From the NCBI GenBank assembly GCA_965223735.1, contig OZ245010.1:1712397-1776396 (forward strand): a stretch of 64,000 nt of DNA, in the 5' to 3' direction. Numbering within the stretch: position 1 is the stretch's first letter; every line of letters starts with the position of its first letter. The stretch is from Candidatus Oxydemutatoraceae bacterium (GTDB lineage: Bacteria; Pseudomonadota; Gammaproteobacteria; Poriferisulfidales; Oxydemutatoraceae). The notes under the pieces were generated by a model that saw nothing but the letters and a program-made list of their open reading frames with translations, did not search any database and was not told where the DNA came from. The translations under genes were made by a program, and so were the position numbers. Below, piece by piece: positions 53,986 to 63,154 of the stretch.

Positions 53986-55326
53986 ATGGTGCAACAGCTG
54001 AGCCAGTTCCGCTATGTCATCGTCGGGGCCGGAATCCACGGTCTCAGTACAGCTTATCACCTTGCACTCGAACTCAAGGCGCGCGGCATAGGCGACGGCG
54101 GCGACCTCGTCGTCGTTGACAAATCATCAGTCGGTGCGGGCGCGTCGGGCATCGCCTGCGGCGTCATCCGCAATAACTACTTCCAGCCCGCGATGCGTGA
54201 GTTGATGGTACACAGCGTCGAGGTGTGGGAAAGCGATCCTGAAAGTTACAGTTACCATCCGGTGGGATATATGCAGATCGCCCCCGCCGTGATGCACGAA
54301 GACGTTGCGAGCATCGCCCGGCAGCAAAAAGACATAGGCTACGAATCGGTCTTTGTCGATGGCAAGAAAGACTGCGCAAATTACATGAAGGAGCTGTTTG
54401 ACGATTGGCAGGCGCGGGACATGACTTGCATATTGCATGAAAAGCGCGGCGGCTATGCGAACAACATGAAATCCATGCACGGGCTCGCCGCAAAGGTCAA
54501 GGGCGAGGGCGTGCAGATCCTTGAGGGCGTTGAAGTCACCGGGTTTGAACGCGACTCGGGAAACGGAGCGGTCAGCGCGGTCGCTACGAGTGCGGGACGC
54601 ATCGACTGCGAATACGTCGTCATCGCATTGGGGCCTTGGGTTAAAACCGCGTGGGAGATGCTCGATTTGCCGGCGACGATAACGGTCGGTCAAGACGGCG
54701 CCGCGCGCGAGTTTCCGATGTGGGTTTACTGGTCGTTGCAGGAAGGCACTTTGGGGGTCAAACCGGACTATCTCAAGACCAATGCCGGTGAGTTTCCGCC
54801 GGTGATTCACATTGATTCAACCGCGCCGCTTCATTCCGACGCCGACGGCTCTCTGATCACCGACAAGATGTGGGGCATTTACTACAAGCCGGATTTTGAG
54901 TTTGGCGGCGTTCAGGGTGGCGCCTCGCCGCACCTGATCGATACCGATCCGGACCGGGTCAAGGTGGACCCTTATGGCCCCGCTTCACCTGACTATGTTG
55001 TGGACGACAAGTTTGTGAACATGTGGGTATCGGCGCTGGGTCATTGCCAGAAGCGCTTTGAAGGTACTCTCCCGAAGTACAAAAACGAGCCGTCGGGCGG
55101 CATCGGCGCGTTTACGCCCGACAACTTTCCGGTGTTTGACGTGTTTTGCGACAACTGCTATATCATTGCCGACTCCAACCACGGCTACAAAATGCTGGGG
55201 GTGGGAAAGCTGGTCGCCGAGGAGATCTGTGGTGATAAGAGACACCTGCTGGAGCCTTTTCGCTTTTCGCGCTACGCGGCGGGCAAGTTACACCCGAAGT
55301 CCCACAGCCCGTTTCCGTGGAGTTGA
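53986..55326 (+). CDS. FAD-dependent oxidoreductase (DAO/sarcosine-oxidase-beta-like)
   Basis: N-terminal dinucleotide fold YVIVGAGIHGLSTAYHLA. RBS GGAGGGGG before the ATG at 53986. Confidence 0.7.
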   Translation: MVQQLSQFRYVIVGAGIHGLSTAYHLALELKARGIGDGGDLVVVDKSSVGAGASGIACGVIRNNYFQPAMRELMVHSVEVWESDPESYSYHPVGYMQIAPAVMHEDVASIARQQKDIGYESVFVDGKKDCANYMKELFDDWQARDMTCILHEKRGGYANNMKSMHGLAAKVKGEGVQILEGVEVTGFERDSGNGAVSAVATSAGRIDCEYVVIALGPWVKTAWEMLDLPATITVGQDGAAREFPMWVYWSLQEGTLGVKPDYLKTNAGEFPPVIHIDSTAPLHSDADGSLITDKMWGIYYKPDFEFGGVQGGASPHLIDTDPDRVKVDPYGPASPDYVVDDKFVNMWVSALGHCQKRFEGTLPKYKNEPSGGIGAFTPDNFPVFDVFCDNCYIIADSNHGYKMLGVGKLVAEEICGDKRHLLEPFRFSRYAAGKLHPKSHSPFPWS

Positions 55327-55378
55327 CAGTGGCGGGGCAAGTGGGTAGTTTGCATTGTCAACGAAGGGGGGCTCGAAC

Positions 55379-56857
55379 GTGACAGATCTTGAAAAGCATG
55401 TCAATGCGCCCGGCAGGGCGGAATTGATCGAGAAAGTGCGCGAGAAAATAAACGCACTCGATATTAAATATATTTACTACCAATTTATTTCAGTCACCGG
55501 CCGCATCGTCGGCAAAGGCATTCCGGCGGACCACTGGGAGCGCGTTTCGGAACGCGGCTTTCAATTGGTTTACGGTTCGACCGCCAATCTTTTTCTCGAT
55601 CGTCACGGCGAATATATCGGCTACGGTCCGGAAGCCGCTGAACTGGTCGGCATCGCTGATCCTGAAACTTTCTGCCAGTTGCCGTGGGACAAGCGCGTGG
55701 CGCGCGTGTTCTGTACCTGTTTCCGCAACCGTGAAGAGCCTCGGGACCCCGGCGCCCACCTGACTTCCGACTGCCGCGGCAATTTGCGGATCATCCACGA
55801 AGAATTCAAGGCCAGGCACGACGGTCTGCATCTGCGCATCGGCACCGAGCCCGAGATGATGTGGCTGAAGCGCGGCGACGGCGGCGGCACCAGCGGCGGG
55901 GTGACCAAGCCGAACTGCTATCACATAGACCAGTTTGAAGAGTTGCGCCCGGTATTCATGAAAGTTATAGAGTATTCGGAAGCGATGGGGTTTGACATGA
56001 TACAGGGTGATCACGAAGACGCGCCCGGCCAGTTGGAACTCAACTGGATGTTCGACGATCCGCTCAGGAATTCTGACCGGCTCAGCACTTACCGTCAGAT
56101 CTGCGCGCAGGTTGCACGTGAGTACGGCCTGATCGCGTGCTTCATGAGCAAGCCGTTTATGGGGGTTTCGGCTTCGGGCTGCCACCATAATGTTTCCCTG
56201 TGGCGCGGGGGCGCGGAGGAACTCAACAAACTGCATTACGACAGTTTGCCCGGGTCGAATAAGGTGTTCACTTATCTTAAAGGCGGGGAAAACACGTTCA
56301 TGCCCGACCCGTCCGCTTCGGATCAGCGCAAGCCCGGGCGCGTCGGTCTGCAGGCCATCGGCGGCGTGATGAAGCATTTGTCGGCACTCACCGCGCTGGG
56401 GTCCTCGACGGTGAACTCATATCGGCGCTTGTGGGACACCGGCTTCTGGGCTCCGTTGTTTGCCGACTGGGGATACCAGAACCGCACTTGCGGTCTGCGT
56501 GTTTCCGCTCCCGGGCGGTTTGAATACCGTTCGGTGGACTCGATGGTCAATCCTTATCTGATGGCGGGCGGCCTGCTCAAGGCGTTTGGCGACGGCATCA
56601 GAAACGACCTCGATCCGGGCGAGCCCGAGGAAAGGAACATTTATGAGGTGATCAAGGAAGGCAAGAAGCAGGTCAAGAAGTTGCCGTTGTCTTTGGGTAA
56701 TGCGCTCGACGCACTTGAAAATGACGAAGTGATCAAAAGCGCTTTGCCCGACGAGATGTATAAAGTATTCATGCACTACAAGCGCGACGAGTGGGAGAGA
56801 TTCAACCATACGGTGACCAATTGGGATATCGAGACTTATCTCGATTACCTGCCGTAG
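55379..56857 (+). CDS. Glutamine-synthetase-family enzyme, gamma-glutamylmethylamide synthetase (GmaS)-like
   Basis: GS catalytic domain (..GTEPEMMWL.., NWMFDD, SYRRLW). Adjacent to an MgsABC-like triplet. GTG start preferred after RBS aaggggggc. Confidence 0.7.
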   Translation: MTDLEKHVNAPGRAELIEKVREKINALDIKYIYYQFISVTGRIVGKGIPADHWERVSERGFQLVYGSTANLFLDRHGEYIGYGPEAAELVGIADPETFCQLPWDKRVARVFCTCFRNREEPRDPGAHLTSDCRGNLRIIHEEFKARHDGLHLRIGTEPEMMWLKRGDGGGTSGGVTKPNCYHIDQFEELRPVFMKVIEYSEAMGFDMIQGDHEDAPGQLELNWMFDDPLRNSDRLSTYRQICAQVAREYGLIACFMSKPFMGVSASGCHHNVSLWRGGAEELNKLHYDSLPGSNKVFTYLKGGENTFMPDPSASDQRKPGRVGLQAIGGVMKHLSALTALGSSTVNSYRRLWDTGFWAPLFADWGYQNRTCGLRVSAPGRFEYRSVDSMVNPYLMAGGLLKAFGDGIRNDLDPGEPEERNIYEVIKEGKKQVKKLPLSLGNALDALENDEVIKSALPDEMYKVFMHYKRDEWERFNHTVTNWDIETYLDYLP

Positions 56858-61568: not shown

Positions 61569-61586
61569 GGGGGGGGGGGGGGGGGG
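61569..61586 (+). repeat. Homopolymer tract (18 G), intergenic upstream of amt
   Basis: Seen directly in the sequence. Confidence 0.9.
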
Positions 61587-61756
61587 CGGAATCCGCTTTA
61601 TCCGCAAATAGCTATATGATTTATACTTGTTTTTCCGCGTCCGCTGTCGGTCTTGACTAATCTTTGCTTAGGGCAGATACTTCCGCAGGCAGGTAACTTT
61701 AGAGTTGATGCGGTTCATCGCATTCTGCAAAAACCATTTAATGAGGAGTTTGTTTT

Positions 61757-63154
61757 ATGACTGAGGAACTCGGCTCTTTAAATGTAATCTTCACAGAGTT
61801 TTATTACTGGGTCACTGTTGTTTTTATGTTCTTGATACACGTCGGCTTTTGCATGTATGAAGTCGGCGTGTCGAGACATAAGAACCACATGCACACTCTG
61901 ATGAAGAATACTATGTTAATTCCGTTAGTGACCGTTACTTTTTTCTTCTTCGGATGGTGGATTTATTTTGCTTTCCCCAACGGTCCGGGCTTTATAGGCG
62001 GACTTGTTGCAGCGCCATCGGCCGTTCCATGGAGCGAACTGATGGGACCGCATATGGGAGGTTCACCGGCAACGGATGCGGTTACCGAAGATGATATGTG
62101 GTGGGCCCGGATCAACGGCGTTTTTTGGGCGGCGTTTCTGCTGTTTTCCTGGACCGCCGCTTCAATCGTGTCGGGCTCGGTCATCGAACGGATACGTTCG
62201 GGTGCTTTCTGGATCTTCGCGGTACTGATCGGTTCAGTTTTCTGGGTCATCGACGCCGCGTGGGGGTGGCACCCCGACGGATGGATGGTGCAACTGCTGG
62301 GCTATCACGACGCCTATGCGTCGGGCGTCATTCACGCCATAGCAGGCGGTTTTGCCTTGGGTATCCTGGTGGTGCTGGGGCCGCGCATCGGCAAATTCAG
62401 GGCCGATGGAACCGCGCGCAACATCACCCCACATAACCCGTGGCTCGTGTCGATCGGATTATTTCTGATCTATACCGGGTTCTGGGGATTTTATGCCGCC
62501 TGCAACGTTCCCATGATAGACATTCAGGACGGCGACGGGGTTTTCTTCTCGGCGACCAATATCTATTTGGGGCCGACCAGTTTGTCGGCAATTACTTTTA
62601 ATTTCCTGATGTCCTTGTCCGGTGGGTTAATGATGGGTTACATCATTTCCAAGGGCAACGCATTCTGGACCTACTCTTCCGGTCTCGCCGGCATCATTGC
62701 GGCGTCAGCCGGGAACGACCTGTATCATCCCATTCAGGCGATGTTGGTGGCTGCGGTCGGTGTGATCTTTATGTATAAGGTTCACTACTGGGTTGAGCGC
62801 ACTTTCAAAGTGGACGATGCGGTCGGGGCAGTTGCGGTTCATGGGTACGCTGGCTTTTTCGGGGTGGTTGTCGCCGGGTTCCTCCTGTGGGGATATCCGT
62901 CTTCGCCCAATCCCGACTATGCGGTGATCAACCCGTTCGGTCAGTTCATCGGAGCGCTGATCATGTTTGGCCTGCTTGGTTTTCTGCCGGCATTTATTGT
63001 CGCCAAGATCCTGCGGGGCATGGATGTTCTGCGCATTCCGAGAGAAGTCGAACTGGCGGGTCTGGACTTGTCGCGCGAAATGGCGGACAGCAAGGATGCG
63101 CGTGATCTTCTCGAAGGTGAGAGGGAAACCGCACGCAGCATGGGCTTGATGTGA
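61757..63154 (+). CDS. amt: Ammonium/methylammonium transporter (Amt/MEP/Rh family)
   Basis: 11-TM Amt architecture with the conserved twin-His region and the D...G signature. Confidence 0.85.
   Translation: MTEELGSLNVIFTEFYYWVTVVFMFLIHVGFCMYEVGVSRHKNHMHTLMKNTMLIPLVTVTFFFFGWWIYFAFPNGPGFIGGLVAAPSAVPWSELMGPHMGGSPATDAVTEDDMWWARINGVFWAAFLLFSWTAASIVSGSVIERIRSGAFWIFAVLIGSVFWVIDAAWGWHPDGWMVQLLGYHDAYASGVIHAIAGGFALGILVVLGPRIGKFRADGTARNITPHNPWLVSIGLFLIYTGFWGFYAACNVPMIDIQDGDGVFFSATNIYLGPTSLSAITFNFLMSLSGGLMMGYIISKGNAFWTYSSGLAGIIAASAGNDLYHPIQAMLVAAVGVIFMYKVHYWVERTFKVDDAVGAVAVHGYAGFFGVVVAGFLLWGYPSSPNPDYAVINPFGQFIGALIMFGLLGFLPAFIVAKILRGMDVLRIPREVELAGLDLSREMADSKDARDLLEGERETARSMGLM

Follow-up and report, generated by a model that had tools for sequence, protein, structure and literature searches.

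A γ-proteobacterial gene cluster for a candidate second glutamate-mediated route of methylated-amine use, deeply paralogous to GmaS/MgsABC

Does a cluster that combines a glutamine synthetase (GS)-like ligase with three glutamate synthase-like proteins encode the known N-methylglutamate pathway, or a system of its own? The question is raised by positions 53986-63154 of a 64-kb stretch of contig OZ245010.1 (assembly GCA_965223735.1, a Candidatus Oxydemutatoraceae bacterium of the γ-proteobacteria), hereafter referred to as the window. Nine genes follow one another there on the + strand: DAO, encoding an amine oxidase/dehydrogenase with flavin adenine dinucleotide (FAD); GS2, encoding the ligase; A2, B2 and C2, encoding subunits with a class-II glutamine amidotransferase (GATase-II)-like domain, a GXGXG domain and a flavin mononucleotide (FMN)-GltS domain, respectively; u132; u188; GFA and Amt. 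The original prediction, made from the DNA sequence alone, read them as a methylamine or primary-amine utilization cluster with the signature of the N-methylglutamate pathway (GmaS, MgsABC, MgdABCD), which is known from Methyloversatilis, Methylocella, Ruegeria and Rhodovulum. Every domain that it named is present and on the + strand. The gene order in its title is not the real one, which starts with DAO, and two conserved genes, u132 and u188, escaped it.

We assign a probability of about 0.6 to the reading that the module, with GS2-A2-B2-C2-u132 as its core, represents a second type of pathway that handles methylated amines via glutamate, deeply paralogous to gmaS/mgsABC. In the sea, methylated amines make up a large pool of organic nitrogen and are precursors of aerosols, and if the module forms a separate family, surveys that use gmaS/mgs markers may be mixing two systems. 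The window proteins were matched against Pfam and NCBIfam, the latter read against its curated cut-offs, and were compared by tblastn with 85 non-redundant related loci, 47 of them with full flanks. For the survey of neighboring genes, the adjacent ORFs of 84 loci were clustered and then counted by tblastn across the 47 full loci.

Ligase, synthase subunits and accessory proteins

The GmaS equivalog model TIGR03105 scores GS2 at 296.2 bits and the corresponding ligase of the cultured Thiohalorhabdus methylotrophus at 282.6 bits, both below the cut-off of 469.6; the canonical GmaS of SAR324, used as a positive control, reaches 648.6 bits. GS2 also stays below the cut-offs of the models for GlnA (TIGR00653, 243.7 bits versus 429) and γ-glutamylputrescine synthetase (NF045547, 220.8 bits versus 650). 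In pairwise comparisons it is 26-29% identical to canonical GmaS and 30% identical to a true archaeal GS, to which canonical GmaS is itself 31% identical. These identities place GS2 on a third branch, neither GlnA-like nor canonical GmaS, so the phylogenetic choice between GmaS and GlnA, by which the original prediction would have stood or fallen, does not discriminate. Unlike canonical GmaS, GS2 is about 490 residues long, is extended at the N-terminus and carries roughly 35-40 inserted residues behind position 288.

The active site of GS2 was mapped by alignment to RhGmaS (PDB 7CQL), for which seven methylamine-pocket and catalytic residues have been proposed, including Lys30' of the adjacent subunit (PMC7948447). 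The match covers six of the seven, with Lys30' not mapped: Tyr147, Gln175, Asp177, Glu179, Glu186 and Asn188 of RhGmaS correspond to Y189, Q217, D219, E221, E228 and N230 of GS2. All six, together with W365, are invariant across 84 GS2 sequences. The signature is of the GmaS type (DHED...NW), whereas GlnA has HHEV...DF. Glu327 is the catalytic flap residue of GlnA and lies within its motif GYEAP; GS2 has GFWAP with the invariant Trp365, and canonical GmaS also has Trp at this place (TWSP). Two second-shell positions differ from GmaS and are invariant in GS2 (Tyr174 to Ile216 and Asn176 to Gly218), and the Asp50'/Ser53' region aligns ambiguously, HMMER and MAFFT giving different results, because of a 10-residue insertion. 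The GmaS-type active site, with Asp219 and with Trp365 in place of Glu327, indicates that GS2 most likely ligates an alkylamine and not ammonia, and would be an alkylamine ligase rather than a glutamine synthetase. Since the mapped first-shell residues are the same as in GmaS, the comparison does not separate monomethylamine (MMA) from dimethylamine (DMA).

As in the N-methylglutamate pathway, separate genes for the GATase-II, GXGXG and FMN-GltS proteins come after the ligase gene, and their order agrees. A2 has an N-terminal Met-Cys-Gly-Ile with the Cys1 nucleophile (Cys2) invariant in 78 of 78 sequences, which it also shares with that pathway. Sequence identity to the canonical subunits is low, amounting to 31% between A2 and MgsA, 36% between B2 and MgsB (B2 being about 50 aa longer) and 51-52% between C2 and MgsC. 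C2 carries four cysteines (Cys347, Cys367, Cys370 and Cys375) that are invariant in 70 of 70 sequences and form the pattern ALNC...CYHCHxGRCPVGVATQ with the spacing C-x19-C-x2-C-x4-C; in contrast, the canonical MgsC proteins of SAR324 and Pelagibacteraceae possess none of the four and have residues of the Asp/Ala/Asp/Asp type there. The cysteines occupy the Fe-S cluster-binding position of glutamate synthase (GOGAT), suggesting that C2 carries an Fe-S cluster. Such a cluster would let C2 exchange electrons with an outside partner, in contrast to N-methylglutamate synthase, which is FMN-only and redox-neutral. The module resembles GOGAT in its Ntn-Cys amidotransferase, FMN and GXGXG domains and in the cysteines by CPVGVATQ (a 3Fe-4S site in GOGAT), and differs from it in that these domains are three small proteins, the partner ligase lacks Glu327 and the genomic context is one of methylated amines.

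Three further proteins set the module apart from the N-methylglutamate pathway, namely the product of the invariant 132-aa gene, that of the frequent 188-aa gene and the single-subunit DAO. The u132 protein is cysteine-free, is 67-81% identical to the window protein across related loci and may be an extra structural subunit; in SAR324 its gene is followed by a 2Fe-2S ferredoxin gene. The u188 protein has a PNPOx-like split-barrel fold of the flavin- or heme-binding type, and as a flavoprotein it is a possible electron mediator for C2. Its longer homologues were screened for informative domain fusions and gave only unrelated or chimeric matches. The best NCBIfam match of DAO is to the soxB family (71.7 bits versus a cut-off of 529), and it aligns to solved SoxB structures only over the FAD-binding half. 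A four-subunit, SoxBDAG-like MgdABCD was not found in the 64-kb window. The original prediction had observed this single FAD oxidase and suspected that the oxidation step or the substrate departs from the textbook pathway, which we judge to be apt. Amt is below the NCBIfam cut-offs for its family (TIGR00836, 169.6 versus 343.3; TIGR03644, 154.4 versus 514), and both His residues of the pore motif, presumably the AmtB twin-His pair, are visible in its translation.

The related loci L006 (1-4031), L037 (about 3100-4750) and L049 (151-5540) contain yet another A/B/C set, of a third type, with about 40% identity to the window subunits. Among its members are a 652-aa GXGXG-GltS fusion and one C homologue that keeps the four cysteines, and it adjoins the module in Planctomycetota and some Proteobacteria. 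The GltS-like triplet family thus comprises at least three lineages in these islands.

Distribution, genomic context and SAR11 counterparts

The order GS2-A2-B2-C2-u132 is colinear in 46-47 of the 47 full loci, which represent many phyla, so the arrangement is not a matter of chance. At least 592 species genomes carry GS2, among them α- and γ-proteobacteria (Arenicellales, SUP05/Thioglobus, Thiotrichaceae), Pelagibacteraceae, SAR324, Planctomycetota, Acidimicrobiia, Binatia and sponge symbionts, and homologues with 74-92% identity occur on very many marine and some soil metagenome contigs. Conservation is exceptionally high: between phyla, the ligase is 74-81% and the FMN subunit 76-93% identical; the C2 cluster at 90% identity has 1152 members from several phyla. 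Annotation pipelines label the module as glutamine synthetase, glutamate synthase or mgsC, and some members of the C2 cluster bear the IMG label "methylamine---glutamate N-methyltransferase subunit C".

Among the genes that accompany the core, a GntR/FCD regulator is present in 34 of the 47 full loci, DAO in 28 (directly upstream of the ligase), u188 in 22 and an orthologous Amt, adjoining the module and 61-77% identical, in 14. DAO and Amt co-occur (Fisher p = 0.024) and Amt is associated with Tdm (Fisher p = 0.0026), both tests covering the 47 loci without correction for phylogeny. The GFA gene accompanies the module in 2 of the 85 loci, the window and L022, which marks it as added locally rather than belonging to the conserved system; the original prediction had included it in the cluster.

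The module is associated with genes for trimethylamine N-oxide (TMAO) and trimethylamine (TMA) utilization, and it shares with the N-methylglutamate pathway its genomic links to Tdm, Tmm, TmoX, SoxBDAG-like and folate one-carbon (C1) genes. Recurrent neighbors in the full loci include Tdm and SoxB-like genes (12/47 each), SoxA-like genes (4/47), TmoX, TmoV, TmoW, Tmm, FolD, formate-tetrahydrofolate ligase (Fhs) and canonical gmaS/mgsABC; in T. methylotrophus, SoxB/D/A/G-like genes lie directly upstream of the module. Within the 64-kb window, Tdm, Tmm, SoxBDAG-like and other methylated-amine neighbors are absent, and only the module, GFA and Amt are present. No Dmm-like gene was found in the window or the related loci by inspection of the recurrent neighbor clusters, which gave only MttB-like, Rieske oxygenase and Liv-type ABC genes.

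Canonical and divergent sets coexist in several lineages. On SAR324 contigs the two stand next to each other with Tdm in between; the canonical set consists of Amt, a ligase of 435 aa and proteins of 299, 226 and 442 aa, and the module of a ligase of 490 aa, proteins of 311, 279, 443 and 125 aa, a 198-aa gene and DAO. Both sets share a locus in MED-G181 and Pelagibacteraceae as well, and the coexisting subunits are 28-31% (A), 33-40% (B) and 51-53% (C) identical. In view of this coexistence and of the four C2 cysteines missing from the canonical MgsC sequences compared (SAR324, Pelagibacteraceae), the identification of the triplet as mgsABC does not hold. The N-methylglutamate signature proposed for the window is borne out by the architecture, the GmaS-type residues and the methylated-amine neighbors of related loci; its equation with canonical gmaS/mgsABC is not.

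In Pelagibacteraceae single-cell genomes the gene order is TmoX, Tdm, a 117-aa ORF, DAO, ligase, A, B, C, a 132-aa gene, Amt, MgsA, MgsB, MgsC and GmaS, and the module proteins are 54-78% identical to those of the window. This order agrees with locus tags SAR11_1302-1316 of 'Ca. Pelagibacter ubique' HTCC1062, where SAR11_1304-SAR11_1310 correspond to the module, flanked by Tdm (SAR11_1303) and TmoX (SAR11_1302) on one side and by the canonical glxBCD/glnT (SAR11_1313-1316) on the other. The published names are opuAC, the TMAO-binding protein gene (SAR11_1302), gcvT-like aminomethyltransferase (SAR11_1303, at the position of Tdm in the single-cell genomes), sox, "monomeric sarcosine oxidase" (SAR11_1304), glnT (SAR11_1305), gltB2 (SAR11_1308), amt (SAR11_1310), glxBCD (SAR11_1313-1315) and glnT (SAR11_1316), and only SAR11_1313-1316 have been assigned to methylamine oxidation (PMC3160333, PMC3870248). 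SAR11_1304, the gene-order counterpart of DAO, is the second most induced protein in nitrogen-limited HTCC1062, and its function was called uncertain (PMC3870248). The mRNAs of SAR11_1305 and SAR11_1302 drop together in the sulfur-limited stationary phase (PMC5069961). Literature searches on the functions of SAR11_1304-1308 and on T. methylotrophus found no characterization of the module. The window organism differs from SAR11 in its high GC content (about 60%) and in having neither Tdm nor canonical genes within the 64 kb; its u188 and GFA are absent from the SAR11 loci.

Several single loci show variations of this context. In the closest relative (L001, 641-9495; ligase 92% identical), the DAO gene is missing, and upstream of the module lie genes for a GcvT-like protein, a trimethylamine/dimethylamine dehydrogenase-type flavoprotein (730 aa, OYE/Pyr_redox_2), an Fe-S/CCG protein and electron-transfer flavoprotein alpha/beta subunits, which places the module in another setting for electron handling. 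One contig bears the cluster twice (L001 and L002). In L031 (6044-19100), DAO-GS2-A2-B2-C2-u132 interrupts an operon, with the SoxB-like gene on one side and the SoxD/A/G-like genes on the other; canonical gmaS lies upstream and canonical mgsABC is absent from the locus, a layout hinting that one synthase may serve two different ligases. In the Arenicellales loci L041 (19087-20247) and L053, a 386-aa Rieske-type oxygenase alpha subunit is encoded between Tdm and Tmm downstream of the module, and a 508-aa homologue of MttB-like methyltransferases lies near the module in L018 and L056. In two metagenome-assembled genomes of sponge symbionts (L023 and L032) additional ORFs separate the module genes, C2 of L032 being about 8 kb from B2, which suggests mobile-element insertion or operon erosion.

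Proposed reactions and rival explanations

In the pathway that we propose, the divergent Amt would import a small methylated ammonium ion, and GS2 would attach the amine to the γ-carboxyl group of glutamate at the expense of ATP. A2 would use Cys1 to cleave the γ-glutamyl-alkylamide and hand the amine over to C2, the A2-C2 complex being held together by B2 and probably also by u132. At C2, with its putative four-Cys Fe-S site, the amine and 2-oxoglutarate would undergo reductive condensation to an N-alkylglutamate with external electrons. The flavoenzyme DAO, which in other genomes may be replaced by a SoxBDAG-like enzyme, would then oxidize the N-methyl group, with glutamate and formaldehyde as products; the GFA-domain protein encoded nearby may take part in handling the formaldehyde. 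The net outcome would be the transfer of the amine nitrogen into glutamate. Taken as a separate family, the module would imply a GOGAT-like N-alkylglutamate synthase, possibly dependent on external electrons, and draws attention to two unstudied partner proteins. In the window genome, MMA is most likely the favored substrate; it is the most economical choice given the Amt in the cluster, the local GFA, the first-shell pocket identical to that of GmaS and the lack of Tdm nearby.

A number of observations weigh against this pathway. DAO is missing from 40% of the full loci and Amt from 70%, and GFA has no conserved link to the module. In nitrogen-limited HTCC1062 the SAR11_1305 and SAR11_1308 proteins stand at 0.67 and 0.66 of the control (PMC3870248), while SAR11_1304 rises, so DAO and the remaining module genes do not always share their regulation. 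The fold search with u132 gave no match, and the case for an Fe-S cluster in C2 consists of its cysteines. The presence of a canonical set alongside the module in the streamlined SAR11 genomes speaks against simple redundancy and thus against MMA there. Finally, what the sequences show directly is gene content, conservation, active-site residues, the cysteine motif, the u188 fold and the genomic association with TMAO/TMA genes; the substrate, each of the reactions, the Fe-S cluster, the path of the electrons and the functions of DAO, u132 and u188 are predictions.

The coexistence of the two sets in streamlined genomes, the adjacency of Tdm and the missing DMA enzyme keep DMA a serious, if tentative, alternative at the level of the family. 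According to it, the module would be the missing DMA route of bacteria without dmmDABC, with a product that enters the canonical gmaS/mgsABC/mgd route: either DMA, once ligated to glutamate by GS2, is converted by A2B2C2 to N,N-dimethylglutamate, from which DAO removes one methyl group to give N-methylglutamate, or DAO itself oxidizes DMA to MMA. The published model has a DMA "bottleneck", and the module or DAO could conceivably relieve it in marine bacteria lacking dmmDABC (SAR11, SAR324, SUP05, Arenicellales), in the former case via γ-glutamyl-dimethylamide and N,N-dimethylglutamate with an Fe-S-containing split GOGAT-like synthase and a new 132-aa subunit. The DMA-producing Tdm directly adjoins the module in Pelagibacteraceae, SAR324, MED-G181, Arenicellales and SUP05; the run in the SUP05 locus L082 is regulator-GS2-A2-B2-C2-u132-Tdm-TmoX-ABC ATPase, with DAO and the canonical set absent within 10 kb. 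The canonical MMA set beside the module in SAR11, SAR324 and MED-G181 implies a non-redundant substrate, and the invariant Ile216 and Gly218 near the amine pocket would enlarge it. All SAR11 and the abundant marine γ- and δ-proteobacteria lack dmmDABC (PMC5520151), which encodes the sole DMA enzyme known so far, and it is in these lineages, the most abundant degraders, that the module adjoins Tdm. HTCC1062 nevertheless uses TMAO as its only source of nitrogen for growth, for which a DMA-converting enzyme of unknown identity has been postulated (PMC8918994). Canonical RhGmaS is poor with DMA, its Km being 16 mM, compared with 27 µM for MMA, 58 µM for ethylamine and 8.7 mM for NH4+. Literature searches for a γ-glutamyl-dimethylamide/N,N-dimethylglutamate route found no paper describing it. 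On the other side stand the six mapped first-shell residues shared with GmaS, the pairing of the window module with an Amt (known as carriers of ammonium and methylammonium, not of DMA), the absence of Tdm and Tmm within 64 kb, and a frequency of DAO at Tdm loci (7/12) that shows no enrichment over the full set (28/47). We also know of no precedent among GOGAT-type enzymes for the hydrolysis of a tertiary amide or for reductive amination with a secondary amine. DmmDABC itself (heme/PAS, reductase and tetrahydrofolate-binding) has no sequence or domain relation to the module and is a possible functional analogue, since each is tied to the reaction that follows Tdm in TMAO breakdown. The module supplies concrete candidate genes for the DMA step, which makes the open question of DMA conversion directly testable.

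Other functions fare less well. Ammonium assimilation by Amt, a glutamine synthetase and an archaeal-style split GOGAT with an Fe-S cluster would account for the nearest solved structure to GS2, the true GS of Methanothermococcus (211 bits, 30% identity), for the GOGAT-like cysteines by CPVGVATQ, for the retained Cys1 of A2 and for the adjacent Amt. However, GS2 has Trp365 instead of the flap Glu327 and Asp219 of DHED where GlnA has HHEV, it falls short of the GlnA model, the neighbors are methylated-amine and C1 genes with no nitrogen-regulation genes among them, the SAR11 counterparts drop under nitrogen limitation while glnA goes up 5-fold (PMC3870248), and the oxidase DAO would have no role. 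On the active-site residues and the genomic context we reject true GS-GOGAT as the principal explanation and leave it only a very slim chance. It is also improbable that the module handles another primary amine (ethylamine, ethanolamine, taurine or aminopropanol) and releases the matching aldehyde oxidatively, even though the pairing of a GS-like protein with DAO recalls PuuA/PuuB, RhGmaS accepts ethylamine, a Planctomycetota locus has TauE and a PALP enzyme downstream, and Liv-type ABC transporters adjoin the module at some loci: no aldehyde dehydrogenase or enzyme for C2/C3 products recurs in the neighborhoods, the recurring neighbors are C1/methylamine genes (Tdm, Tmm, TmoX, SoxBDAG-like, FolD, Fhs), and the γ-glutamylputrescine synthetase model scores far below its cut-off. 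Membership in the canonical N-methylglutamate pathway was rejected because the ligase lies below an NCBIfam cut-off that the positive control passes and the A/B/C triplet coexists with a canonical set.

Layout of the cluster and other features of the window

The coordinates of the cluster genes and of the features that follow them are given in Table 1. The intergenic gaps from DAO to GFA range from -16 to +55 nt, which is compatible with one operon. The DAO frame is open from GTG 53908, upstream of its ATG; the GS2 frame begins at TTG 55355, with the alignment to homologues beginning at GTG 55379; and the probable start of GFA is a GTG that overlaps the stop codon of u188 (GTGA). GFA and amt are separated by 265 nt, with a promoter-like site at 61653-61681. 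Upstream of this site, a homopolymer of about 20 G (61568-61587) could be an assembly artefact or a slippage-prone tract. Scanning 51-64 kb with Rfam for a riboswitch ahead of amt gave no match.

Table 1. Genes and sequence elements of the cluster and its downstream flank (positions in the 64-kb window)
Feature	Coordinates	Strand	Matches and remarks
DAO-family FAD amine oxidase/dehydrogenase	53986..55326	+	PF01266, E = 1.7e-33; 446 aa from ATG 53986
GS2, GS-like γ-glutamyl-amine ligase (predicted)	55355..56857	+	PF00120, E = 1.2e-78; ~490 aa
A2, class-II (Ntn) glutamine-amidotransferase-like subunit	56913..57854	+	PF13522, PF13537
B2, GXGXG-domain subunit	57839..58672	+	PF01493, E = 1.1e-16; 16-nt overlap with A2
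C2, FMN-GltS-domain subunit, putative Fe-S cluster	58696..60078	+	PF01645, E = 9.7e-92
u132, 132-aa protein, fifth core gene of the module	60098..60496	+	no Pfam/NCBIfam match
u188, 188-aa accessory gene, PNPOx-like split-barrel	60519..61085	+	no Pfam/NCBIfam match
GFA-domain protein (Cys-rich, Zn-type)	61082..61492	+	PF04828, E = 2.3e-18, 66.8 bits
Divergent Amt-family transporter (ammonium/methylammonium)	61757..63154	+	PF00909, E = 3.4e-55, 187.8 bits
Intrinsic-terminator-like hairpin	63426..63458	+	14-bp stem and T-run; closes the amt transcription unit
169-aa protein, N-terminal hydrophobic segment	63486..63995	+	no Pfam/NCBIfam match

Proteins of 165-169 aa with a hydrophobic N-terminus, like the one at the end of the window, adjoin Amt or the module in 8 loci, including L053 (7121-7618), L008, L015, L041, L059, L069 and L074. 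The homologues are 32-39% identical, and the protein may be a partner or a regulator of Amt.

The genes upstream of DAO encode an unrelated ExbB/ExbD/TonB system and a TonB-dependent receptor. Two ORFs that overlap in separate frames make up the receptor (Plug, 51416-52027; β-barrel, 51855-53660), suggesting a frameshift, pseudogene or sequencing error. Farther upstream, positions 16000-28000 form a low-GC island (GC 0.40-0.52, compared with about 0.61 elsewhere in the window), which was probably acquired horizontally. It carries a type II CRISPR-Cas system with a 972-aa Cas9-like protein (18563-21481, - strand) and Cas1 (17388-18287, - strand), and further encodes an HTH/M78 peptidase, a RecQ-like helicase and a DprA-like protein.

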